Sequence record: PQ488502.1 | Length of the DNA stretch: 64,000 nucleotides | Strand: one strand, 5' to 3' | Source: Escherichia phage BUCT632 | In this document: positions 1-45,728 of the stretch, in pieces | Layout of the letters: each line of letters opens with the position of its first letter | How positions within the stretch are numbered: the stretch's first letter is position 1 | The notes under the pieces: generated by a model | Told to the model about the DNA's origin: nothing | Databases searched by the model: none | What the model saw: the letters and a program-made list of their open reading frames with translations, nothing else | Made by a program: the position numbers and the translations under genes

Positions 1-2432
1 GAGCTCAAGAAAAAACTAATAGACAGATAGACCCTACCAACGTTGGTGCTGTTGCTTTAAGTTTAGCTGCTTCTGAAGAAGGCTATAATAAAGCTCTAGA
101 TATGTATAAGGAATCTCTTGATAAGCGTAATAAGCTAAAATCTGAGTTCGATAAACGAATGGAACAAGCAGATTTCTATACAAAACTAGCTATACGTCAA
201 GTTGGTGAAGGTATTCCTGTTGGTATTGCAGCAGCAGGTGCTTCGGAGGCCAATAAGCAATTTGTAGCAGAAACTGCAGCTATGGGTCTACAAGTAACTA
301 GACTTGGTAAGGAAGTAGAGGATTCTACAGAGAACCTCAATGCTTGGAAATCAGCGTATCAAGCTGCTGGAGCTGCTGCTGCAAAAGCTAATCCACAGTT
401 TCAGAAACAGATTAATCTACAGAGAGATTCTACAGATCCTGGCGCTGTATACGATTTTAACTCTACTGTATTAAAAGGACTAACTGAGCAGCAGAAAGCG
501 TACAATCAGACTAAGAAAACTGCTAGTGACTTAGCGAATGATATACAGAACGTTGCTCAGAATACAGATACTGCTGCTAAAACTAGTGCTACTTTAGCAG
601 ATGCTATAAAAAACATAGAATCTCTATCTCTAGGTACTGGTAAGAGTGCTGATGAATATGTTAAAAATCTTAACCTAGGCTACAACACTCTGTCTGAAAT
701 GAAAACTGCGTCTCAGGCCTTATCTGAGTACGTTAAACTAACTGGTAATGAGACTAAGAACCAGTTAGCAGTTCAACAGAAGATAGCTGACGTATACAAC
801 CAAACTAAAGATAAAGAAAAAGCACAGGAAGCCGGTAGGCGTTTAGAACTCCAACAGTTAGAAGAGCAAGAGGCTGCTTTACGCCGTGTTCTTCAAACAA
901 ACCAGGGAAATAAAGCTGTTGAGAAAGAGATTGAAAAAATTCAGCTGGAGAAACTTAAGCTTACCAATCAGGGTATGGAAGCTCAGAAGAAAGTTAAGGA
1001 TTATACAGATAAAATTCTGGGTGTAGACCGTGAGATAGCTCTCTTAAATAACCGTACTATGACAGATACTCAGTATCGTTTAGCACAGTTAAATCTTGAA
1101 TTGACCATTGAAAAAGAGAAGTACGAATGGTATACAAAACAAGCTGATAAACAGAAAGAGGCGGAACAGTCTAGACGTGCTCAAGCCCAAATTGAACGTG
1201 AAATCTGGAAATTCCGCCAAGATCAGATTGCTTCAATGGCTGCTGGTAGAGAGGAAGAACAGCAAAGACAATTTACCGCTAAACCATTAATGGGAAATGC
1301 GGAGCGCTTACAGGAACAGCTAAAATTATATGAAGACTTAAAGCAGAAAACATTAGGTAATGCTGCGGCACAAGCGGAATATAATAAAAAGATAGCTGAA
1401 ACTAGGGCACAACTAGCAGGTTTAAGGGCACAGAGAAATGCGGAGATGCAAGCTTCTGTTGGATCTTCTTTAGGTGCTGTGTACACTCCTACAACTGGAC
1501 TATCTGGAGAAGATAAAGATTTTGCTGATATGGGAAATAGAATGGCTTCTTATGATCAGGCAATTTCTAAACTATCTGAGTTAAATTCCGAAGCAACTGC
1601 TGTAGCTCAAAGCATGGGTAATTTAACCAATGCTATGATTCAGTTCTCTATGGGGTCTTTAGACACTACTTCCACGATCGCAGCAGGTATGCAGACTGTG
1701 GCCTCTATGATTCAATATAGTACTAGTCAACAGGTTAGTGCAATTGATCAGGCTATTGCAGCAGAGCAGAAACGTGATGGTAAATCAGAAGCATCTAAAG
1801 CTAAGTTGAAGAAACTAGAAGCTGAAAAGTTGAAGATTCAACAAGACGCAGCTAAGAAGCAGATCATCATCCAAACTGCAGTAGCTGTAATGCAAGCGGC
1901 GACAGCTGTACCGTACCCGTTCTCTATTCCTTTGATGGTGGCGGCAGGTTTGGCAGGTGCCTTAGCTCTTGCTCAAGCATCTTCTGCATCTGGTATGTCA
2001 AGTATTGCAGATTCTGGAGCGGATACAACTAGTTACCTAACCTTAGGAGAACGTCAGAAGAATATAGATGTGTCCATGTCTGCTAATGCAGGTGAACTGT
2101 CTTATATTCGTGGCGATCAAGGTATAGGTAGCGCTAACTCTTTCGTTCCTCGTGCTGAGGGTGGTAATATGTACCCTGGGGTTAGCTATCAAATGGGTGA
2201 GCATGGTACAGAAGTAGTTACCCCTATGGTTCCTATGAAAGCTACACCTAATGATGAGCTAAAAACTTCATCTAACTCAACTTCAGGAAGACCTATCATC
2301 TTGAATATTAGTGCTATGGATGCTGCAAGTTTTAGAGAGTTTGCTTCTAGTAATAGTAGTGCTCTAAGAGACGCAGTAGAATTAGCTCTGAATGAGAACG
2401 GTGCTAGTCTGAAAACATTAGGAAATTCTTAA
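1..2432 (+). CDS. Tail tape measure protein (pb2-like), C-terminal part; 5' end lies outside the window
   Basis: Frame is open from base 3; long coiled-coil-like sequence, a hydrophobic membrane segment (AVAVMQAATAVPYPFSIPLMVAAGLAGALALA) and a C-terminal domain; position directly upstream of Dit and hub genes. Confidence 0.8.
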   Translation, partial: AQEKTNRQIDPTNVGAVALSLAASEEGYNKALDMYKESLDKRNKLKSEFDKRMEQADFYTKLAIRQVGEGIPVGIAAAGASEANKQFVAETAAMGLQVTRLGKEVEDSTENLNAWKSAYQAAGAAAAKANPQFQKQINLQRDSTDPGAVYDFNSTVLKGLTEQQKAYNQTKKTASDLANDIQNVAQNTDTAAKTSATLADAIKNIESLSLGTGKSADEYVKNLNLGYNTLSEMKTASQALSEYVKLTGNETKNQLAVQQKIADVYNQTKDKEKAQEAGRRLELQQLEEQEAALRRVLQTNQGNKAVEKEIEKIQLEKLKLTNQGMEAQKKVKDYTDKILGVDREIALLNNRTMTDTQYRLAQLNLELTIEKEKYEWYTKQADKQKEAEQSRRAQAQIEREIWKFRQDQIASMAAGREEEQQRQFTAKPLMGNAERLQEQLKLYEDLKQKTLGNAAAQAEYNKKIAETRAQLAGLRAQRNAEMQASVGSSLGAVYTPTTGLSGEDKDFADMGNRMASYDQAISKLSELNSEATAVAQSMGNLTNAMIQFSMGSLDTTSTIAAGMQTVASMIQYSTSQQVSAIDQAIAAEQKRDGKSEASKAKLKKLEAEKLKIQQDAAKKQIIIQTAVAVMQAATAVPYPFSIPLMVAAGLAGALALAQASSASGMSSIADSGADTTSYLTLGERQKNIDVSMSANAGELSYIRGDQGIGSANSFVPRAEGGNMYPGVSYQMGEHGTEVVTPMVPMKATPNDELKTSSNSTSGRPIILNISAMDAASFREFASSNSSALRDAVELALNENGASLKTLGNS

Positions 2433-2436
2433 AACT

Positions 2437-2467
2437 GGAGGAGGACTTTGAGTCCTCCTTTTCTTTA
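2437..2467 (+). terminator. Rho-independent terminator-like hairpin after the tape measure gene
   Basis: AGGAGGACT-TTG-AGTCCTCC stem-loop followed by TTTTCTTTA. Confidence 0.6.
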
Positions 2468-2485: not shown

Positions 2486-2514
2486 TTGATAAAATTTTCT
2501 AATACTATTATAAT
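2486..2514 (+). promoter_or_regulatory. Sigma70-like promoter (TTGATA-N17-TATAAT)
   Basis: -35 at 2486-2491, 17-nt spacer, -10 at 2509-2514. Confidence 0.5.
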
Positions 2515-2522
2515 ATTGTTGA

Positions 2523-3131
2523 TTACCAGACCCATACACGAATCCAGAACTTTCAGGCTTAGGATTCGAAAGTGTTAACCTGATTGATAATGACCCAGTA
2601 ATTCGTGATGAGTTACCAAATGGTAAAGTTAACGAAGTTAAGGTATCTGCTCAATACTGGGGTATAAATATTTCTTATCCAGAATTATTTCCAGATGAAT
2701 ATAGTGTTCTAGATGCTTTTATTCTAGAATACAAAAGGACTGGTAGTTATATAGATGTTATATTGCCCCAATACGAAGCTTTTAGGGTTAGAGGTAATAC
2801 TAGTCTAGTAAATATACCTGCTGGACAGAAAGGTTCTAATATAACTATGGATACAAAAGGACTTCTTATCGGTACTCCAAAACCGGGGGATCTATTTAAG
2901 CTATCTAACCATCCAAAAGTATATAAAATAACATCATTCAATAAATCAGGCAATACGTGGTCTATAAACTTATATCCTGATTTATTTATAACTACTACTG
3001 GGGCTGAGAAACCCGTATTTAACGGAATACTATTTAGAACAAAACTCATGAATGGTGATGCTTTCGGATCTACATTAAATAATAACGGAACATATTCCGG
3101 CATCTCATTAAATTTACGGGAAAGTTTATGA
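2523..3131 (+). CDS. Distal tail protein (Dit, pb9-like)
   Basis: Open frame begins at 2523 right after an in-frame TGA; no ATG/GTG/TTG until the TTG at 2763 used by the ORF track, but the upstream 80 codons are protein-like; the stop overlaps the hub gene start (ATGA). Confidence 0.6.
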   Translation, partial: LPDPYTNPELSGLGFESVNLIDNDPVIRDELPNGKVNEVKVSAQYWGINISYPELFPDEYSVLDAFILEYKRTGSYIDVILPQYEAFRVRGNTSLVNIPAGQKGSNITMDTKGLLIGTPKPGDLFKLSNHPKVYKITSFNKSGNTWSINLYPDLFITTTGAEKPVFNGILFRTKLMNGDAFGSTLNNNGTYSGISLNLRESL

Positions 3132-5977
3132 AGAAAATACTAGATAGTGCTAGAAACTACTTAAAAAATAATAGCAGAATAAAAACTGCTAGTCTAATTT
3201 CCCTAGAATTACCTGGCTCTACTGGTACTAGTACTGCTTTTATTTATTTAACTGATTATTTTAGAGATGTACTATATAATGGTATTTTGTACCAGGCCGG
3301 TAAGGTTAAGTCCATTAGCACACATAAACAAAATAGAGATTTATCTATTGGCAGTCTATCTTTTACTATTACAGGTACAGCGCAGGATGAAGTACTTAAA
3401 TTAGTGCAGAATGGTGTGTCCTTTTTAGATAGAATAGTATCAATCCACCAAGCAATTATTACAGAGGATGGTTCTATTTTACCGGTAGACCCAGACACAA
3501 ATGGCCCTTTATTATATTTTAGAGGGAGAATTACCGGTGGGGGTATTAAGGACAACATTAGTACTTCTGGGGTTGGAACCTCCACAATTACTTGGAATTG
3601 TTCTAACCAATTCTATGATTTTGATAGGGTTAATGGTAGATTTACTGACGATGCTTCTCATAGAGGGCTTGAGGTTGTAGCAGGGCAATTAGTTCCATCT
3701 AACGGGGCTAAAAGACTTGAGTACCAAGAAGATTATGGGTTCTTTCACGCCAATAAAAGTATCTCTATTCTAGCAAAATATCAGGTACAGGAAGAAAGAT
3801 ACAAGCTAAAGTCTAAGAAAAAACTATTTGGTTTATCTAGAAGCTATAGTCTTAAAAAGTATTATGAGACTGTTACTAAAGAAGTAGATATAGATTTTAA
3901 CCTTGCTGCTAAGTATATACCAGTAGTTTATGGTGTACAGAAAATACCGGGAATACCTATTTTTGCGGATACAGAATTACACAATCCTAATATAGTTTAT
4001 GTAGTATATGCTTTTGCTGAAGGAGAGATAGACGGTTTTCTTGACTTTTCCTTCGGGGATAACCCTATGATTTGTATGGACTCTAATGATAGCTCTGCTA
4101 GAACCTGTTTCGGTGTTAAAAAAGTAGCCGGAGACACCATGCAAAGAATAGCATCAGGAGTATCTTCTAGTAGTCCTTCTGTGCATGGTCAGGAATATAA
4201 GTATAATGATGGTAATGGTGATATAAGGATTTGGACTTATCATGGAAAAGCAGATCAAACGGCTTCTGAAGTATTAGTAAATATAGCGAAGGAACGTGGA
4301 TTCTATCTTCAAAATATGAACGGTAATGGGCCTGAGTACTGGGATGCTAGATATAAACTATTAGATACTGCATACGCGGTAGTACGCTTTACTATTAATG
4401 AAAATAGAACTGAGATCCCCGAAGTTAGTGCTGAGATTCAGGGTAAGAAGATAAAAATCTATCATTCTGATGGTAGAGTAACTGCTAATAGCACTAGTTT
4501 AAATGGTATCTGGCAAACACTTGATTACTTAACTTCAGATAGATACGGAGCTAACATTACTATTGATCAGTTCCCTCTTCAACAATTGATACAGGAAGCT
4601 GCTATCCTAGATATTATAGATGAATCTTACCAAGTATCCTGGCAGCCATACTGGAGATACGTTGGGTGGACTGATCCATTAGCAGAAAATAGACAAATAG
4701 TACAAATGAATACTATTCTAGATACATCTGAATCAGTATTTAAAAACGTGCAAGGTTTGTTAGAGTCCTACGGTGGGGCTATTAACAACTTATCTGGTCA
4801 ATATAGGATTACTGTAGAAAAATATTCTAATACTCCATTAGAGATTAATTTTCTAGATACTTATGGAGACTTGGAACTATCAGATACTACTGGTAGAAAC
4901 AAATTCAACTCAGTTCAAGCATCTATTGTAGACCCAGCTCTTAGCTGGAAGACTAACTCTATTACCTTTTACAACTCTAAATATAAAGAGCAAGATAAAA
5001 ATCTAGACAAAAAATTACAGTTATCTTTTGCAAATATAACTAACTACTATACTGCTAGAAGTTTTGCAGACAGAGAGCTTAAAAAATCTAGGTATTCTAG
5101 AACCCTCTCATTTTCTTTACCTTATCAATTCATTGGTATTGAGCCTAATGATGCTATTGCATTTACATACGACCGTTATGGATGGGATAAGAAATACTTT
5201 TTAGTAGATGAAGTAGAAAACTCTAGAGAAGGAAAGATAAATGTCACCCTACAGGAGTATGGAGAAGATGTATTTATCAACTCTGATCAAGTAGATAATA
5301 GTGGTAATGATATACCAGATATTAGTAACAATGTTCTTCCTCCTAGAGATTTTAAATATACTCCTACACCTGGTGGTTTAGTTGGTTCTATAGGAAAAAA
5401 TGGTGAGTTATCTTGGCTTCCAAGTTTAACTAATAACGTAGTTTATTACTCTATCGTGCATTCCGGTCATGCTGAGCCTTATATTGTGCAGCAACTAGAA
5501 ACAAATCCCAATGAACGCATGATCCAAGAGATAATTGGAGAGCCTGCAGGTTTAGCAATATTTGAAATAAGGGCTGTGGATATAAACGGTAGAAGAAGTT
5601 CTCCAGTAACATTATCTATAGAACTTAACTCTGCTAAAAACCTAAGCGTAGTATCTAATTTTAGAGTAACTAATACGGCCTCTGGGGATGTAACTGAGTT
5701 TGTCGGCCCAGATGTAAAACTAGCTTGGGATAGGATACCGGAAGAAGATATAATAGAAAGTATATTCTATACTCTGGAGATCTATGATTCTCAGAATAGA
5801 ATGCTAAGAAGTGTACGCATTGAAAATCAGTATACTTATGACTATTTATTAACGTATAATAAGGCAGATTTTGCTCTTCATAACAGTGGTGCTCTAGGGA
5901 TCAATAGAAAACTATATTTTCGTATTAGAGCAGAAGGAGATGATGGAGAACAGTCTGTGGAGTGGGCATCCATTTAA
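3128..5977 (+). CDS. Baseplate hub / tail tip protein (pb3-like), 949 aa
   Basis: 949-aa ORF matching the T5 pb3 size; position between Dit and the central fibre gene. Confidence 0.8.
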   Translation: MKKILDSARNYLKNNSRIKTASLISLELPGSTGTSTAFIYLTDYFRDVLYNGILYQAGKVKSISTHKQNRDLSIGSLSFTITGTAQDEVLKLVQNGVSFLDRIVSIHQAIITEDGSILPVDPDTNGPLLYFRGRITGGGIKDNISTSGVGTSTITWNCSNQFYDFDRVNGRFTDDASHRGLEVVAGQLVPSNGAKRLEYQEDYGFFHANKSISILAKYQVQEERYKLKSKKKLFGLSRSYSLKKYYETVTKEVDIDFNLAAKYIPVVYGVQKIPGIPIFADTELHNPNIVYVVYAFAEGEIDGFLDFSFGDNPMICMDSNDSSARTCFGVKKVAGDTMQRIASGVSSSSPSVHGQEYKYNDGNGDIRIWTYHGKADQTASEVLVNIAKERGFYLQNMNGNGPEYWDARYKLLDTAYAVVRFTINENRTEIPEVSAEIQGKKIKIYHSDGRVTANSTSLNGIWQTLDYLTSDRYGANITIDQFPLQQLIQEAAILDIIDESYQVSWQPYWRYVGWTDPLAENRQIVQMNTILDTSESVFKNVQGLLESYGGAINNLSGQYRITVEKYSNTPLEINFLDTYGDLELSDTTGRNKFNSVQASIVDPALSWKTNSITFYNSKYKEQDKNLDKKLQLSFANITNYYTARSFADRELKKSRYSRTLSFSLPYQFIGIEPNDAIAFTYDRYGWDKKYFLVDEVENSREGKINVTLQEYGEDVFINSDQVDNSGNDIPDISNNVLPPRDFKYTPTPGGLVGSIGKNGELSWLPSLTNNVVYYSIVHSGHAEPYIVQQLETNPNERMIQEIIGEPAGLAIFEIRAVDINGRRSSPVTLSIELNSAKNLSVVSNFRVTNTASGDVTEFVGPDVKLAWDRIPEEDIIESIFYTLEIYDSQNRMLRSVRIENQYTYDYLLTYNKADFALHNSGALGINRKLYFRIRAEGDDGEQSVEWASI

Positions 5978-8040: not shown

Positions 8041-8463
8041 ATGAGTACTGAAAATAGAGTTATAGACTTAGTGATAGATGAGAAAGTACCTTATGGTCTA
8101 ATGATGCAATTCTTAGATGTTGATGATAGTACTTATCCGCATACAAATACCCCTGTTAACTTAACAGGGTATTCTCTAAGAGGTACTATAAAGACCAGTC
8201 TTGATGAGAATGCGGAAACTTTGGCATCTTTTACTACTAAAATTATTGATGCTGCTCAAGGTGCTATAGCCATAAGTTTGCCCGTAGAGGCGGTAGAGAA
8301 TATTGGTGCCAAAGCCACCAAAGAAAGAGATAAATATAATCCTCGCCAACGTTTTGCAGGATACTATGACATAATTATGACACGAGATGTCATAGGATCA
8401 GCTATTAGCTCCTTTCGTATAATGGAGGGTAAAGTATTTATCAGTGATGGGGTAACTAAATAA
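8041..8463 (+). CDS. Collar protein (p132-like), 140 aa
   Basis: 140-aa ORF immediately upstream of the tail fibre gene, same size as T5 p132. Confidence 0.65.
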
Positions 8464-10856
8464 TGGCAGTAACTACTAAAATTATTGTGCAACAAATACT
8501 GAATATAGATGATACGAAAGCTACTGCTAGTAAATTTCCTAGATACACCGTAATTCTTGGAAATTCTATTAGTTCTATTACTGCTAGTGAGTTAGTATCT
8601 TCTATAGAAGCCGCTGCTAAATCTGCTGCAGCGGCTAAAGATTCTGAAATAGCAGCTAAGACTTCAGAGCTTAATGCTAAGAACTCTGAACAGGAAGCTG
8701 CTATTTCTGCTGGAGCTTCTGAAGCTTCTGCTACTCAGTCTGCTACCTCTGCTACTCAGTCTGTCACTTCTGCTACTAAATCCGCAGAATCAGCTGCAGC
8801 TGCAAAAACCTCTGAAACCAATGCTAAGTCTAGTGAAACAAAAGCTAAAACTAGCGAAACTAACGCAAAAACTAGTGAAACAAAAGCTAAAACTAGCGAA
8901 ACTAATGCAAAAGCTAGTGAGGATAATGCAAAGGTCAGTGAGACTAATGCTGCCGCTTCTGCTGCAGCGGCAAAACTTAGTGAGGATAATGCAAAGGTCA
9001 GTGAGACTAATGCTGCCGCTTCTGCTGCGGATTCCAGTGGTTTTAGGAATGAGGCGGAAACATTCTCTACACAAGCTGCTACATCAGCTTCTGCTGCAAA
9101 AACCTCCGAAACAAAGGCTAAAACTAGCGAAACTAATGCAAAAGCTAGTGAGACTAAAGCCAAAGCTAGTGAGACTAACGCAGCTAGTTCCGCAACTTCA
9201 GCTAGTCAGTCAGTAACTACTATCCAAGGCTTAAAATCAGATGTTGAGCAACTAAAATCAGATACTCAGGCCATTAAAAACAGTGCTGTAACAGAGACAA
9301 CAGCTATAAAGGCAGATGTTGCGCAGTTAAAAACAGACACACAAGGCATTAAGAATAGCGCGATAACAGAAACTACCACGCTAAAAAACCAAGCTGCTAA
9401 TTCTGCAACTAGTGCTGCTAATTCTGCTACTGAAGCAGGAAAACAAGCTACTAGTGCTGCCAATAGTGCTAAGACTGCTAAGACTGAGGCCGACCGCTCA
9501 AAAACTGAGGCTGATAGATCAGAAGCTGCTGCTAATTCTACCCCCGACATTCAACCTCTTCCAGATGTATGGATACCGTTTAATGATTCTCTAGATATGA
9601 TTACAGGATTTTCACCTTCATATAAAAAGATTGTTATTGGTGACGATGAAATCACGATGCCTGGAGACAAGATTGTTAAATTTAAGCGAGCTTCAACTGC
9701 GACATATATTAATAAGTCTGGGGTGCTTACTAATGCTGCTATTGATGAACCTAGATTTGAAAAGGATGGTCTGCTCATTGAGGGGCAAAGAACAAACCTT
9801 CTTATAAATAGCACCAATCCTTCAAAATGGAACAAGTCATCAAATATGATCTTAGATAGATCAGGTGTAGATGATTTCGGATTCCAGTACGCAAAATTTA
9901 CATTAAAACCAGAAATGGTAGGGCAAACTTCAGCGATTAACATAGTAACCGTTTCCGGCAGTAGAGGTTTTGATGTAACAGGAAATGAAAAGTATGTAAC
10001 CATATCATGCAGGGCGCAAAGTGGGACTCCAAATTTAAGATGCCGATTACGATTTGAAAACTACGATGGATCTGCTTATACATTTTTGGGTGATGCTTAC
10101 GTAAATCTGACAGATTTATCAATTGAAAAAACTGGCGGCGCTGCAAATCGTATTACTGCAAGGGCTGTTAAAGATGAAGCAAGCAAATGGATTTTCTTTG
10201 AGGCAACAATTAAAGCGCTTGATACAGAAAATATGATCGGTGCAATGGTGCAGTATGCACCAGCAAAAGAGGGAGGGGGCACTGGTGCAGATGATTATAT
10301 TTATATTGCTACCCCTCAAGTTGAAGGCGGGGTGTGCGCTTCATCGTTTATTATTACAGAAGCGACTCCAGTAACACGGGCAAGCGATATGGTCACATTG
10401 CCAATAAAAAACAACCTTTACAATTTGCCATTTACAGTACTTGTGGAAGCTCATAAAAACTGGAGTATAACGCCAAATGCAGCGCCACGTGTTTTTGATA
10501 CCAGCGGTCATCAAACCGGAGCGGCTATTATTCTTGCTTTCGGATCTGCCGAAGGCGATAATGATGGATTCCCTTATTGCGATATAGGTAAATCAAACAG
10601 AAGGGTTTACGAAAATGCAAAACTAAAAAAGATGATCATGGGAATGAGAGTAAAGAGTGATTACAATAATTGCTGTGTAAGTAATGCCAGAATATCAAGC
10701 GAAACAAAAACGGAATGGAGATACATACAATCAACGGCTATTATAAGGATTGGAGGACAAACAAATACTGGAGAACGACATTTATTTGGCCATATCCGAA
10801 ACTTTAGAATCTGGCATAAGGAACTAACTGATAGACAAATGAAGGAGTATGTATGA
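8463..10856 (+). CDS. L-shaped tail fibre protein, proximal part (pb1-like N-terminus with a divergent C-terminal domain)
   Basis: N-terminus with Ser/Ala/Thr/Glu/Asn/Lys heptad-like repeats (TSETNAK/TSETKAK); C-terminal 400 aa globular; no C-terminal chaperone domain. Confidence 0.7.
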   Translation: MAVTTKIIVQQILNIDDTKATASKFPRYTVILGNSISSITASELVSSIEAAAKSAAAAKDSEIAAKTSELNAKNSEQEAAISAGASEASATQSATSATQSVTSATKSAESAAAAKTSETNAKSSETKAKTSETNAKTSETKAKTSETNAKASEDNAKVSETNAAASAAAAKLSEDNAKVSETNAAASAADSSGFRNEAETFSTQAATSASAAKTSETKAKTSETNAKASETKAKASETNAASSATSASQSVTTIQGLKSDVEQLKSDTQAIKNSAVTETTAIKADVAQLKTDTQGIKNSAITETTTLKNQAANSATSAANSATEAGKQATSAANSAKTAKTEADRSKTEADRSEAAANSTPDIQPLPDVWIPFNDSLDMITGFSPSYKKIVIGDDEITMPGDKIVKFKRASTATYINKSGVLTNAAIDEPRFEKDGLLIEGQRTNLLINSTNPSKWNKSSNMILDRSGVDDFGFQYAKFTLKPEMVGQTSAINIVTVSGSRGFDVTGNEKYVTISCRAQSGTPNLRCRLRFENYDGSAYTFLGDAYVNLTDLSIEKTGGAANRITARAVKDEASKWIFFEATIKALDTENMIGAMVQYAPAKEGGGTGADDYIYIATPQVEGGVCASSFIITEATPVTRASDMVTLPIKNNLYNLPFTVLVEAHKNWSITPNAAPRVFDTSGHQTGAAIILAFGSAEGDNDGFPYCDIGKSNRRVYENAKLKKMIMGMRVKSDYNNCCVSNARISSETKTEWRYIQSTAIIRIGGQTNTGERHLFGHIRNFRIWHKELTDRQMKEYV
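8916..9028 (+). repeat. Tandem direct duplication (two 50-bp copies, 63-bp period) inside the fibre rod region
   Basis: AGTGAGGATAATGCAAAGGTCAGTGAGACTAATGCTGCCGCTTCTGCTGC at 8916-8965 and again at 8979-9028. Confidence 0.85.
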
Positions 10857-11131
10857 GAGATATAATCCTAAAATTCACGGATAAATCAGCGTATAAAGAT
10901 TTTCTCCTAGAAATAGAGTGGGATAGTAATGAAACTTTACAAAACCAAATAATGCTTGATGAAATTGGCTATACTTATACTGAAATCTCTCCGCTAGGAG
11001 ATGAGGAGCCTAGATGCATCCGTAATGAAGGATACTATGTTAACGTAAGGATTCTTGATGAATCCTTTACTTACGAATACTTTGAGCCTTTTATAGTTCA
11101 GTTGGAACAGCCTCTTAGAGAGTGGGCATAA
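10853..11131 (+). CDS. Hypothetical protein (92 aa) between the two fibre genes
   Basis: ORF with overlapping start (ATGA); acidic. Confidence 0.5.
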   Translation: MRDIILKFTDKSAYKDFLLEIEWDSNETLQNQIMLDEIGYTYTEISPLGDEEPRCIRNEGYYVNVRILDESFTYEYFEPFIVQLEQPLREWA

Positions 11132-11140
11132 GGTTTTATA

Positions 11141-12880
11141 ATGGTAACTAAAACAGTAATTCCTACGGATATTACAAAACTTAAAAATGAGTCTCTTAAC
11201 AAGAATAATAACTTAAGCGACTTAGCAGATCGCGCAGCTGCGTGGCTAAATGTTCGTCCTATTGGATCTACTCCCCTTGCGGGAGACCCCGTTAATGATT
11301 ATGATGCTGTAACTAAGCGTTGGGTGGAGAACAAAATTAATACTGGCACAGTAGGACCCACAATGAATGGTGTCATGAACTATGGTGTAGGTGATTTTCA
11401 CCTTCGCGATAGCCGTGCGTATATTCAACCTTACGAGGTAGTTTCTGATGGGCAGCTTCTTAACAGGGCTGACTGGCCGGAGCTTTGGGCTTACGCTCAA
11501 ATGGTGGGGGCTATAGAGGATTCTGAATGGCTGGCTGATAAATTTCAGCGCGGCAAATACTCTAAAGGGAATGGAACAACTACATTCCGCGTTCCAGATA
11601 AGAATGGTGTACAAGATGGGTCAATACGCGCTCTTTATGGTCGTGGGGATGGAGGAAATAGCGGTGCAAATGGCCAGCTATTTGAATCTGCTGCACCAAA
11701 TATTACAGGTTATTTTACCACTTATTCCCAGGGTAGTTACGCGCAGGCTATTGGCACATCTTATGGTGCATTCTTTTCTGATAATGCGATTTTTCCTAAT
11801 GGTGATGGGGATGCGATTCCAGGTACAGGAAATATTGCAATACCAGGCCGCTATAACACATGTAATTTCGACGCTTCACGCTCCAGTCCAATTTACGGGG
11901 CATCAACTGATGAGATTCTTACACGAAACTTTGTAGGTGTATGGGTAATCCGCGCATCAGGCGGGTTCGTTGCTGCGAATACGTCGTGGAGTGTTAAGAA
12001 TGCAGATAGTAGTACACCTCCACAGAATACCTCCGTTCGTGGTGGTGAAGTAGTATCGGAATACTCCAATCCAGCAGGTAAGCGGTTTGCTCGTCTATAC
12101 TCTGATATTATCTGGGGCTCCTCGGGGGCGGCGATTATTGAGGCTGAGGGCTCTGCTAAGCACTCCTATAAGTTTTACGAAGATGGTACAGTAGACTTCC
12201 GCCAGTCAGGGAAGATTAACACCTTTCATATGCACACTCCTATGGGTACATGGAATGGTATTACGGATGCAGGAGTGAACAACCTAAGTACCAACGGCAT
12301 GGATAGGATAGCCATTGCGAGCGGTTCCGACACACTCATTCGTGGTTATTCTATCGGTGGGTATCGCCCTAACGGATACCCCACCAAGGTTGGATACCAT
12401 ATGTATATTCCAGGCAATAATGCATTTGGTATAGGTTGCGTGGTAATCGGTGGAGATAACGGTAAATTCTGTCGATACTTCCTTGACATTGATGGTCAAA
12501 TATATGGTTCGACTGATTACGGGAACTTTAGTTATACAAAAAATGGTACTTCTGACTCACGTGTAAAACACGGCATCGCCCCTGTTGGAGTTGACAAATC
12601 ATACTCTAATATTAAAGGACTGGAATTTGTAGAGTTCATTTATGACAATGACGAACAAAATCGAGTTCGGCATGGCGTGATTGCACAGCAAGCAGAGGTT
12701 GTTGAGCCTTTGTATGTTAAGACGCGCAAATATGTTGGCAATAATCCAGGAGAGGTTGTGGAGCAGAAGGAGCTGGACACCACGCCGATGCTTCTGGATA
12801 CCATGCACGTTGTGCAGGTATTGATGCAGAGGATCGAAGCGATGGAAGCTGAGATTGCGGAATTAAAGGCAAGTAAGTAA
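11141..12880 (+). CDS. Tail fibre protein with phage tail-collar-like domain and C-terminal intramolecular chaperone (peptidase S74-like) domain
   Basis: LLNRADWPELWAYAQ motif typical of tail fibre collar domains; C-terminal ...GVIAQQAEVVEPLYV...EAMEAEIAELK resembles the autoproteolytic chaperone of T5 pb1 and endosialidases. Confidence 0.7.
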   Translation: MVTKTVIPTDITKLKNESLNKNNNLSDLADRAAAWLNVRPIGSTPLAGDPVNDYDAVTKRWVENKINTGTVGPTMNGVMNYGVGDFHLRDSRAYIQPYEVVSDGQLLNRADWPELWAYAQMVGAIEDSEWLADKFQRGKYSKGNGTTTFRVPDKNGVQDGSIRALYGRGDGGNSGANGQLFESAAPNITGYFTTYSQGSYAQAIGTSYGAFFSDNAIFPNGDGDAIPGTGNIAIPGRYNTCNFDASRSSPIYGASTDEILTRNFVGVWVIRASGGFVAANTSWSVKNADSSTPPQNTSVRGGEVVSEYSNPAGKRFARLYSDIIWGSSGAAIIEAEGSAKHSYKFYEDGTVDFRQSGKINTFHMHTPMGTWNGITDAGVNNLSTNGMDRIAIASGSDTLIRGYSIGGYRPNGYPTKVGYHMYIPGNNAFGIGCVVIGGDNGKFCRYFLDIDGQIYGSTDYGNFSYTKNGTSDSRVKHGIAPVGVDKSYSNIKGLEFVEFIYDNDEQNRVRHGVIAQQAEVVEPLYVKTRKYVGNNPGEVVEQKELDTTPMLLDTMHVVQVLMQRIEAMEAEIAELKASK

Positions 12881-29755: not shown

Positions 29756-30043
29756 CTACACATCTAGCTCAACGATCTCCCAATCATCCGCCAGAGCTTC
29801 TTCTAGGGTTAGGGAGGAGGTTTTCCATGTTGCGTCTTTTATATCGAACTTGGTATACCCATCTTCATTGGGCCACCAGGTAAACTCGACAATATCATTA
29901 TTATCAACATCTACTTTTATAATAGTAGAGTAATAAGTACGAGCGTCCCAATTACCCCAGCTATCCCGCTGGAGATATTTTACATCTCCATCTTTCAGTA
30001 AATCTGTTAGTTTACTCACGGCGTTTTCCTTTTTCTTTATCAA
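29756..30043 (-). CDS. Hypothetical protein
   Basis: 95-aa ORF. Confidence 0.45.
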   Translation of the reverse strand: MIKKKENAVSKLTDLLKDGDVKYLQRDSWGNWDARTYYSTIIKVDVDNNDIVEFTWWPNEDGYTKFDIKDATWKTSSLTLEEALADDWEIVELDV

Positions 30044-30716
30044 GTTTCAGGGCAGCCTTAACAGCTTCGTTAATCAACGTAATAATTTCTTCACGAGTCC
30101 ATTTATATCCTAGAGATTTTACGTCAACCCCTAACTTTTCCAGATGTTTAACAGAGGCCAACTCGTAATTCATATAATGAACGTTCTGTTGTTTGCCTTC
30201 TGATAGAAGCCATACACGGTAACAACCAACAGGATTATCCATTGCTTTTTTGATTTCACCGATACACTGGTATCCAGGAACCCAAACAAGCTCACCAACT
30301 GCAAATTCTTCTGCTACAGCATCATCAGGAATAATTGGAGGATTCAATGGATCTACAATATCGTTCAAACGAAGTAGAGCACCATATCGTTCCAGAACAG
30401 ATTTAACCATTGCTACAGAGCGATAATTACGATCGGCAATTTCTTCAAAAGAATCACCAGATAAATACTGCTCAATAACGTTGGCTAACTCAATGCCTTC
30501 AATGAGAGTGCCACGTTTCTTTTTCTTCATTTCGGCAACCTGAATCTGGCGGTCTTGCCATTCTTCAATCATCCTTTCCATAGTTGGATTGGACGATACG
30601 CCGAGCATTTCACATGCTGCTTTCTTAGTACCACCGTTCTCCAGATGCTCTATAACCTTTTTAAAGACTTCATCCGGGATTTCATGGATATGTTTCTTTC
30701 TACGAGAACCAGCCAT
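30012..30716 (-). CDS. Hypothetical protein with helix-turn-helix-like N-terminal region
   Basis: 234 aa; GGTKKAACEMLGVSSNPTMERMIEEW resembles an HTH; RBS GAGGGAGGAG and a TTGCAT-N17-TATAAT promoter at 30747-30775 (minus). Confidence 0.5.
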   Translation of the reverse strand: MAGSRRKKHIHEIPDEVFKKVIEHLENGGTKKAACEMLGVSSNPTMERMIEEWQDRQIQVAEMKKKKRGTLIEGIELANVIEQYLSGDSFEEIADRNYRSVAMVKSVLERYGALLRLNDIVDPLNPPIIPDDAVAEEFAVGELVWVPGYQCIGEIKKAMDNPVGCYRVWLLSEGKQQNVHYMNYELASVKHLEKLGVDVKSLGYKWTREEIITLINEAVKAALKLDKEKGKRRE

Positions 30717-30784
30717 ATTTAAACTCCTCCCTCAAATTTATGAATCTATTATACAGAAATTTTTTGCACTATGCAAATAAATTT

Positions 30785-31027
30785 TTACGATTCCTTGAGC
30801 AAAGAAGCTAGTTCAGCATAGACTTTATCTAACTCAAAGCCGATGCGAAGAGACACGTTTGTTTTCCGTTGTTTAAGTAACCACTCGGATATGTTAGGGA
30901 TGCCAGCTAATCTGTGCGGTACCACCCTACATAGCTTTTCCGAAGTGTCGTAAACAGGAACTTTACGTTCTTTTACTGGGAACTTCCTTGTTTCCCATTT
31001 TTTATTCTTCACTGTCATTTCTAGCAC
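30785..31027 (-). CDS. Hypothetical protein
   Basis: 80-aa basic ORF. Confidence 0.45.
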   Translation of the reverse strand: MLEMTVKNKKWETRKFPVKERKVPVYDTSEKLCRVVPHRLAGIPNISEWLLKQRKTNVSLRIGFELDKVYAELASLLKES

Positions 31028-34320: not shown

Positions 34321-34396
34321 GTAAATTTTTCCCAAAGGTGCTATCAGTGTCTTTGAGCATAGAGAAAACCGAGCCAAAATGACTCGGTTATATGGA

Positions 34397-34591
34397 TTAA
34401 TCATAAAAAAGACCACGAATAGTATTAGCAAATTTAAGTATAATAGCGCGGTTTGAGCTACTTAACTTTTTAATATCGAAAGTGGGATCGGTCAAATATC
34501 TTGCCATAAATTTTACTTGCTTAGCTGAAAGTTGGCCCTTATTCCACTTTTTAATCTTACCATAACATACCCAATATTCTTTATTCATCAT
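34397..34591 (-). CDS. Hypothetical protein
   Basis: 64-aa ORF. Confidence 0.4.
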   Translation of the reverse strand: MMNKEYWVCYGKIKKWNKGQLSAKQVKFMARYLTDPTFDIKKLSSSNRAIILKFANTIRGLFYD

Positions 34592-36722: not shown

Positions 36723-36936
36723 TTTTCACCTGTTCTCTGAAGTTTTGCCCAATACTATCTAACAGCTCAGCTAATTCTTTATTACCTTTCTCCATTAAGG
36801 TATTAGCAATAACTTCTAGCATAGTAGCGCAAGATTCAACACCATCCTTATAGCCAGTTTCCCAGTGCTGCATTAATGCGTTTTCCAAAGCGGCGTTTAA
36901 ACCCTTATCTGGTAGCATCGGCTTCGAGAATGCCAT
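36715..36936 (-). CDS. Hypothetical protein
   Basis: 73-aa ORF. Confidence 0.4.
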   Translation of the reverse strand: MAFSKPMLPDKGLNAALENALMQHWETGYKDGVESCATMLEVIANTLMEKGNKELAELLDSIGQNFREQVKNA

Positions 36937-37108
36937 AAAGTTTCTCCTCTAGTTCCATAACACGATTTTCATAAGAGGCACGCAACTTTTCAATTGCCAG
37001 CGCACGCACTGTAACCTCATTAGAATTAATAGCTAATTGGGCCAGGTCTTCTGTTTCCATACGTCCGTTGTAAATTAAGCGATATTTAAGATGTTTTACA
37101 TTTTTCAT
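36905..37108 (-). CDS. Hypothetical protein
   Basis: 67-aa ORF. Confidence 0.4.
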   Translation of the reverse strand: MKNVKHLKYRLIYNGRMETEDLAQLAINSNEVTVRALAIEKLRASYENRVMELEEKLYGILEADATR

Positions 37109-37317
37109 TCTCGTTCCTCAAACATTTCAATTTCTGCATTAGCAATAGAAAGGGCGGGCTCAGATAAGCACAATCCCATCCTAGGATCGATCTTCCCTTC
37201 GCCAATCCAAGTACTTACTAAACATAATTTAGTTATATCCTCACGGAGAATCGAACCATATGCCCCAGAATCCATAATAAAATAGATACGTTCTTTATCT
37301 ACCTTGTGAACTCTCAT
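37105..37317 (-). CDS. Hypothetical protein
   Basis: 70-aa ORF preceded by a minus-strand TTGCTT-N17-TATAAT promoter and RBS. Confidence 0.45.
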   Translation of the reverse strand: MRVHKVDKERIYFIMDSGAYGSILREDITKLCLVSTWIGEGKIDPRMGLCLSEPALSIANAEIEMFEERE

Positions 37318-44344: not shown

Positions 44345-44874
44345 TAACGGCATTATATGCAGTTGGGCCGAATGGGGAGTTCGGCCTCCGAGGTAAACTC
44401 CCCTGGGGTTCCTTCAAAGAAGAACTAGATGCTTTCTACTCTCAACTGGACGTGTTGAACCCAGATAACATCATCATTGGTGCGGGTACTTATTTAGCAC
44501 TTCCAGAAGTTGTTCGGCAACGTATGATTGGAGAATCTGACCTCTTTATTCGTGCGGATCGTCCTCTGCCTGATGATATTAAACATGGTATTTACACTCC
44601 AATTTCTAAGATTGGGGATACATTACCTACATTCTTAAAAGATCAACAGACAGTGGTTTTAGGTGGCGCAACATTACTGTACGAAATGTATATTCATGGA
44701 CATATTGAAAGTGCTTTTGTATCAACAATCTTTAGTAATCAAAAACTAGAGGCAGATGTACATCTGGATAATATGATTCTAGATTACAACTATGAATCTA
44801 CTCGTTTAGTTTACGCAACCGGCGCAAACAGTGATAACAGCCTGCGATTTGTACAGGAATTGGTTACTTATTAA
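44341..44874 (+). CDS. Dihydrofolate reductase-like protein
   Basis: 177 aa; N-terminal [22 protein letters not shown]; placed between nrdB and thyA as in T-even and T5 phages. Confidence 0.65.
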
Positions 44875-45728
44875 TGGATCAGTATATCGAAGTTGGAAAA
44901 CGTATTCTATCAGAAGGTCAGTGGGTAACGAACCCTAGAACAGGGGTTCGTTGCCTCACTATTATTGACGCAGACTTTACTTTTAACGTGGGTGCAGGGG
45001 AATTTCCACTTATTACTACTCGTAAGGCGTTTGCAAAACAAGCAATAATGGAAATGATTGGGTATCTACGTGGGTATGACTCAGCAGCACAATTCCGCGC
45101 TATTGGTGTTAACACATGGAATGCTAATGCAAATGAAAACTTAGCTTGGCTAGACAATCAATACCGTAAAGGTGAGGATGATATGGGACGAGTCTATGGT
45201 GTTCAAGGACGTCAGTGGACTAATTCCGATGGTCTTATGTTTGACCAACTAGCCAAGATTTATCATAACCTGAAGAAGGGCATTGATGATCGTGGGGAAA
45301 TTCTAACATTCTGGAATCCGGGAGAGTTCTCAAAGGGTTGCTTACGTCCATGTATGCACACTCATCAATTCTCTATTTTGGGAGATACATTATACCTGAA
45401 CTCTTTCCAGAGATCTAATGACTTCCTGTTAGGCCAAGTATTTAACATGGTTCAGTGCTATACGCTTCTAGCATTAATGGCACAGATTACAGGTCTTAAA
45501 CCAGGAATTGCACGCCAGAAGATTATCAATCTTCATATCTATGAGGATCAGTATAATGTTTTGATGGAGCATAAGCAATTCGATCGTGAACCTTTTGCGC
45601 ATCCTACTCTAGAAATCAATCCAAACATCCGAACTCTGGAGGATGTATTGACCTGGGTAAGTAAGGATGATTTTACTGTTCGTGGTTACGAACACCACCC
45701 TGCTATTGCATATCCATTCACTGTGTAA
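44874..45728 (+). CDS. thyA: Thymidylate synthase
   Basis: 284 aa; ThyA motifs (FWNPGEF, catalytic cysteine region [10 protein letters not shown]). Confidence 0.85.

Follow-up and report, generated by a model that had tools for sequence, protein, structure and literature searches.

The start of the Dit gene in the record of T5-like phage BUCT632: a 25-nt gap identical to an expression-vector element

The Dit (pb9) reading frame in the sequence record of Escherichia phage BUCT632 (PQ488502.1) has no start because a 25-nt gap takes out its Shine-Dalgarno sequence and ATG. The gap lies within the 64,000-nt stretch of DNA that was analysed here (hereafter, the window). The missing block is base-for-base the ribosome-binding site (RBS)-to-ATG element of pQE/pCA24N expression vectors, ATTAAAGAGGAGAAATTAACTATG; within the phage collection searched, the same site is gapped in the records of only two other phages, SP3 and SP1a, to which BUCT632 is not closely related, and the sequence around it is intact. 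We consider it likely that the vector-identical 25-mer was cut from reads or from the assembly after it was mistaken for vector contamination. In the BUCT632 phage itself, the Dit gene is almost certainly normal and preserves the strong RBS and the ATG that are usual for it.

The Dit locus and its reading frame

The window belongs to a T5-like phage of the genus Tequintavirus, and its DNA is 93–97% identical to that of many Salmonella and Escherichia phages. Dit is encoded between the genes for the tape measure and the baseplate hub (Table 1); in SP3, Lindwurm, and FFH1, the stretch that matches pb2 of the window carries the annotation tape measure protein. In the intergenic region, the hairpin proper of the terminator spans 2437–2461; the Lindwurm and AKFV33 annotations also mark a terminator here. 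A preliminary description of this DNA had placed a sigma70-like promoter here with a −10 element ending at 2514. This promoter is upheld by its consensus match; it is a T5-consensus promoter in the AKFV33 annotation and is invariant across the aligned relatives. We take it to be the T5 promoter P_G25. P_G25 is confirmed from the literature as a T5 late promoter, and a literature search for its identity with the promoter at 2486–2514 gave no confirmation. Downstream, pb3 is probably translationally coupled to Dit: its start codon overlaps the stop codon of Dit, and it has hardly any RBS (in Lindwurm, the RBS annotated for pb3 measures only 3 nt).

Table 1. Features of the Dit locus in the window
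Feature	Coordinates	Strand	Evidence or remark
Tape-measure/pore-forming tail tip gene (pb2), 3' part	1–2432	+	ORF list; cut by window start; TAA 2430–2432
Intrinsic terminator hairpin, GGAGGAGGAC-TTT-GAGTCCTCC, then T tract	2437–2467	+	Scan
Sigma-70 late promoter, TTGATA 2486–2491, 17-nt spacer, TATAAT 2509–2514	2486–2514	+	11/12 consensus match
25-nt gap junction	2520–2521	+	Alignments; relatives carry ATTAAAGAGGAGAAATTAACTATGA between both bases
In-frame TGA formed by junction	2520–2522	+	T of left flank plus GA remnant of AGA codon
Dit (pb9) coding sequence, residues 3–204 and stop codon	2523–3131	+	Profile and structure alignments; TGA 3129–3131
First canonical in-frame start, TTG	2763–2765	+	ORF list
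Baseplate hub gene (pb3)	3128–5977	+	ATG overlaps Dit stop codon, ATGA 3128–3131

The coordinates given earlier for the opening of the Dit frame, from 2523 and directly after the TGA, are confirmed, as is the count of 80 codons (2523–2762) that precede the first ATG, GTG, or TTG. These start-less codons had been called protein-like, and they belong to a complete domain: in a Pfam search, the frame from 2523 to 3128 matches PF21425 (pb9 A domain, N-terminal part) over its full length (1–84/84, E = 1.1e-45), together with PF21430 (pb9 B domain, E = 1e-39) and PF21424 (A-domain C-terminal segment, E = 2.2e-20). The frame aligns end to end with residues 3–204 of the solved chains 8hqz_H, 7qg9_a, and 4jmq_A, which are proteins of 204 residues. 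It therefore shares with T5 pb9 (PDB 4JMQ and 7QG9; 8HQZ chain H is closer) these residues, the three Pfam pb9 domains, and the gene position, whereas the record lacks codons 1–2 (Met-Arg), the Shine-Dalgarno sequence, and the 5' UTR. The Dit frame shows no decay; the Dit protein is 99% and pb3 is 99.3% identical to the Lindwurm counterparts. About 45 of 50 Lindwurm genes have collinear homologues in the window, and all but Dit keep a canonical start at the reference position. A second candidate start-less gene, at 36905–37108, was rejected on finding its own ATG.

Several explanations offered in the preliminary description are excluded or unsupported on this evidence. Stop-codon readthrough from the upstream tape-measure gene is excluded because five in-frame stops, the terminator, and the promoter lie between the two genes (the stops between 2430 and 2522). 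A genuinely truncated Dit that begins at 2763 would lose the whole PF21425 domain, which is absent from that form in the Pfam search. The intact homologues whose annotation was compared (Lindwurm, FFH1, and AKFV33) do not start at the equivalent of 2763 either: they start six bases upstream of the equivalent of 2523, and the solved Dit chains have residues 1–2 before the residue aligned to 2523. As for a non-canonical initiation codon, no candidate was found, and the nearby TTGs (2516 and 2519) are in the wrong frame. Genuine non-AUG and leaderless initiation is exemplified by the AUU start of Escherichia coli infC and the leaderless lambda cI mRNA. Such genes resemble the Dit gene of the window in having a coding frame without an ordinary ATG, GTG, or TTG plus a Shine-Dalgarno sequence. 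They nevertheless have a near-cognate codon with a Shine-Dalgarno sequence, or a 5'-terminal AUG, that is conserved among relatives, while the relatives of the window have a strong RBS and ATG, and the window has no substitute signal. Interpretations of the start-less Dit frame as unusual biology are not supported.

The gap and the records that carry it

Nucleotide alignment with relatives, the check that the preliminary description had proposed, revealed the 25-nt gap between 2520 and 2521. Lindwurm, FFH1, and AKFV33 read ...TATAATATTGTT-ATTAAAGAGGAGAAATTAACTATGA-GATTACCAGAC... at this site, and the missing block is present there in about 436 related T5-like records. The block consists of 5' UTR, which includes the Shine-Dalgarno sequence AGAGGAG, followed by the ATG and the initial base of codon 2. 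The intact form across the site is AAAGAGGAGAAATTAACTATG (spanning form TATAATATTGTTATTAAAGAGG...). In the record, the gap joins ...ATTGTT to GATTACC..., giving the gapped junction TATAATATTGTTGATTACC, and the flanks are 30/30 identical to those of relatives. The in-frame TGA arises because the junction joins T to GA; TGT stands where the reference has its codon for residue 1, with this TGA following, and neither a Shine-Dalgarno sequence nor a start codon occurs there. Among the options considered earlier, a sequencing frameshift comes closest in that it supposes an error in the record, although what the record shows is a 25-nt gap and not a one-base frameshift. The expectation that a corrected sequence could reveal an ATG near 2520 is borne out in that all close relatives show such an ATG. 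Over about 59 kb aligned to Lindwurm, the Dit gap is the sole clean indel of at least 8 nt with conserved flanks, and no further clean deletion was found in the window. No repeats or strong structure flank the site, and the fold of the first 100 nt of the mRNA is unremarkable (z = −1.6). Useful microhomology was not found at the gap junctions of the window, SP3, or SP1a. Slippage between the flanking ATTA repeats was rejected because it would remove 26 nt and leave a different junction.

Among 439 phage records that match the junction region, the only ones colinear with the gap are SP3 (two accessions, MG387042/NC_048001) and SP1a (MF774687). Like the window, both are gapped at the same site and have Dit annotated as truncated; unlike the window, they are missing 24 nt, one base less, which keeps the gap in frame. 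SP3 and SP1a are draft or partial assemblies, and both come from chicken intestinal contents in India. SP3, from a Cochin group, was sequenced with Illumina technology and assembled with IVA and SEQuel. Exact scans found the gapped junction in no metagenome or GTDB genome contig, and in IMG/VR only in SP3's own copy; the intact form occurs in 14 IMG/VR contigs (T5 itself included) and four metagenome contigs. By Dit DNA identity, the nearest relatives of the window are FFH1 (98.7%) and Lindwurm (98.4%), both intact, and SP3 is closest to intact fp01 (99.3%), while the window and SP3 share only 95.9% identity. Across the tail region, SP1a and the window are about 81% identical, and SP1a differs in bases directly beside the junction. 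Judged by sequence identity, the three gap carriers are not each other's closest relatives, so that the gap would have had to arise three times. Its occurrence tracks submitters or pipelines and not phylogeny.

This distribution bears on whether the deletion could be real. If at least three T5-like phages truly lacked the block and made Dit and the coupled hub without a Shine-Dalgarno sequence or canonical start, an essential structural gene would, strikingly, be expressed independently of a start codon. The perfectly intact Dit frame and the presence of the gap in three records speak for such a deletion, as does the modest demand for the protein, since a T5 virion needs only six Dit copies. 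Initiation might then occur at CTG 2580 or ATT 2583, by re-initiation after a 20-codon ORF from TTG 2516, or on a leaderless transcript from about 2521. Each route meets difficulties. The predicted transcript start at about 2521 gives GAUUACC, without a 5'-terminal AUG; TTG 2516 and TTG 2519 are out of the Dit frame and terminate after 20 codons; CTG 2580 and ATT 2583 have no Shine-Dalgarno sequence at the usual distance, and starts there would lose about 20 conserved N-terminal residues. A real deletion also requires three independent identical events without microhomology in unrelated carriers, and, apart from the SP3 record itself, the metagenome, GTDB genome, and IMG/VR contigs lack the gapped junction. 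Loss of the block would eliminate a tail hub protein that is essential and would probably also reduce coupled pb3. Such a deletion would be harmful, but electron microscopy shows normal tails on SP3 virions, which counts for an artefact. We regard a real deletion with unconventional Dit initiation as very unlikely.

A related reading, in which the deletion is real and a defective genome was assembled (a non-viable variant in the lysate or a helper-propagated one), would account for an intact coding sequence without a start, although nothing points to it directly. The defective variant would, however, need to supply most of the reads in each of three phage stocks and also coincide with a vector-identical block, and no other lesions occur in the roughly 59 kb compared. 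It is the least probable of the explanations considered, and we give it hardly any weight.

Identity with vector sequence and the origin of the gap

The RBS element of pQE, pDS56, and pCA24N (ASKA) vectors, GAATTC-ATTAAAGAGGAGAAATTAACT-ATG, which we take to be 'RBSII', is identical to the missing phage stretch over 24–27 nt; in the vectors, unlike at the phage site, an EcoRI site lies on one side of it and a tag or insert on the other. The vector element presumably derives from the T5 locus under promoter P_G25. Identity between intact phage and pQE-30-type sequence extends over 27 nt in a blastn-short comparison and starts exactly at the 5' edge of the gap. The 3' edge of the gap falls at the ATG (24 nt) or one base beyond it (25 nt), 2–3 nt short of this maximal identity. 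Gaps of 24 or 25 nt are compatible with vectors or constructs in which a different codon follows the ATG, such as the pQE-type plasmid NZ_CP097216 (PLSDB), which reads CTCGAG-AAATCATAAAAAATTTATTTGCTTT-GTGAGCGGATAACAATTTCACACA-GAATTC-ATTAAAGAGGAGAAATTAACT-ATG-AAA and has 25 nt of identity to intact phage. The missing 24-mer is thus also present in a real pQE-type plasmid (GAATTCATTAAAGAGGAGAAATTAACTATGAAA). Up to the ATG, the 24-mer is printed in 13 papers, in at least three of which it directly follows an EcoRI site in pQE/pCA24N-type constructs.

We infer that the stretch was cut out by a screening step rather than by another processing error. A screen of reads, contigs, or the submission for vector or contaminant sequence would have flagged ATTAAAGAGGAGAAATTAACTATGA, and the stretch could then have been removed by trimming of reads or contigs against a vector library or manually after a GenBank VecScreen notice. 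Its excision would have brought the flanks together, forming the in-frame TGA and depriving the Dit frame of its start. Nothing would make a natural deletion stop at a boundary that arose by cloning, whereas a vector screen would do so, which favours the screen. Excision would explain the gap position, its exact 5' edge, its recurrence in unrelated phages, its restriction to few records, and the lack of decay in Dit and pb3. A literature search turned up no account of false-positive VecScreen hits in phages of the T5 type. Some observations count against excision. The SP3 paper makes no mention of vector screening, and the 3' fit of the 24/25-nt gaps to the maximal 27-nt identity is imperfect. 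The T5 promoter P_N25 is also intact in SP3 and SP1a (a 65-nt exact match), which fits excision only if the screening library held the lacO-hybrid form found in pQE. Retention of P_N25 is non-discriminating as a test, as the pQE hybrid form is only about 17–20 nt identical to these phages. In the window, a near-exact copy of P_N25, the 'T5 promoter' of pQE/pDS, is likewise intact on the minus strand at 30722–30786, upstream of a D2-like gene (30015–30716).

A different processing error, whether by assembler, polisher, contig joining, or manual edit, would make the vector match incidental. SP3 is a draft from IVA and SEQuel whose assembly still holds two N gaps, and the Dit gap is one base longer in the window than in SP3 and SP1a, as such an error might produce. 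A generic glitch would not, however, strike the same 24–25 nt in three different phages or begin exactly at the first base of phage-vector identity, and the site has no adjacent repeats or strong structure that could provoke one. We therefore consider an unrelated processing error unlikely, and excision as supposed vector sequence the probable origin of the gap.

Consequences for sequence records and other differences between the genomes

The biological weight of the gap is small, an ordinary Dit gene being very probable. Its importance lies in the records. The Dit RBS of the T5 family is native and yet identical to a common expression-vector element, so T5-like genomes are exposed to false vector calls in screening. 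When such a match is excised, an essential tail gene loses its start without any warning. Effects on annotation are visible in SP3 and SP1a, in which the same gap led to truncated Dit annotations of 94 aa (SP3 RefSeq, L001 847–1131) and 177 aa (SP1a, L009 3884–4417) that are now in public protein databases. Curators and pipelines should whitelist the Dit RBS site, and the affected records need correction.

Other departures from Lindwurm are of different kinds. SP3 has a second, unrelated clean deletion relative to Lindwurm (34 nt, non-coding, ATCCCCACCAAAATTAAACGCGTTAGAATGCGAT, L007 about 8382), and its two N runs (L007 1379–1488 and L008 43182–43281) are gene-breaking. Lindwurm ID032, ID062 (N-glycosidase), and ID064 have no counterpart in the window, and a 70-aa ORF without a Pfam match (37105–37317, minus strand) stands in place of the 126-aa Lindwurm ID051. 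At 34389–34583, the window has about 170 nt that Lindwurm lacks, between genes and upstream of the one for the replication-origin-binding protein; an insertion of 96–97 nt occurs in SP3 and SP1a at this position of Lindwurm (L010 about 35264). The thymidylate synthase gene at 44874–45728 (plus strand; PF00303, E = 5e-69) has 30% protein identity to Lindwurm ThyA at the same position, and the genes that flank it are 97–99% identical to Lindwurm; from these identities, it looks like a replacement by a distant homologue. The tail-fibre genes at 8463–12880 (plus strand) have 50%, 34%, and 69% protein identity to Lindwurm compared to 86–99% for neighbouring tail genes, and this region is presumably a mosaic module for host range.
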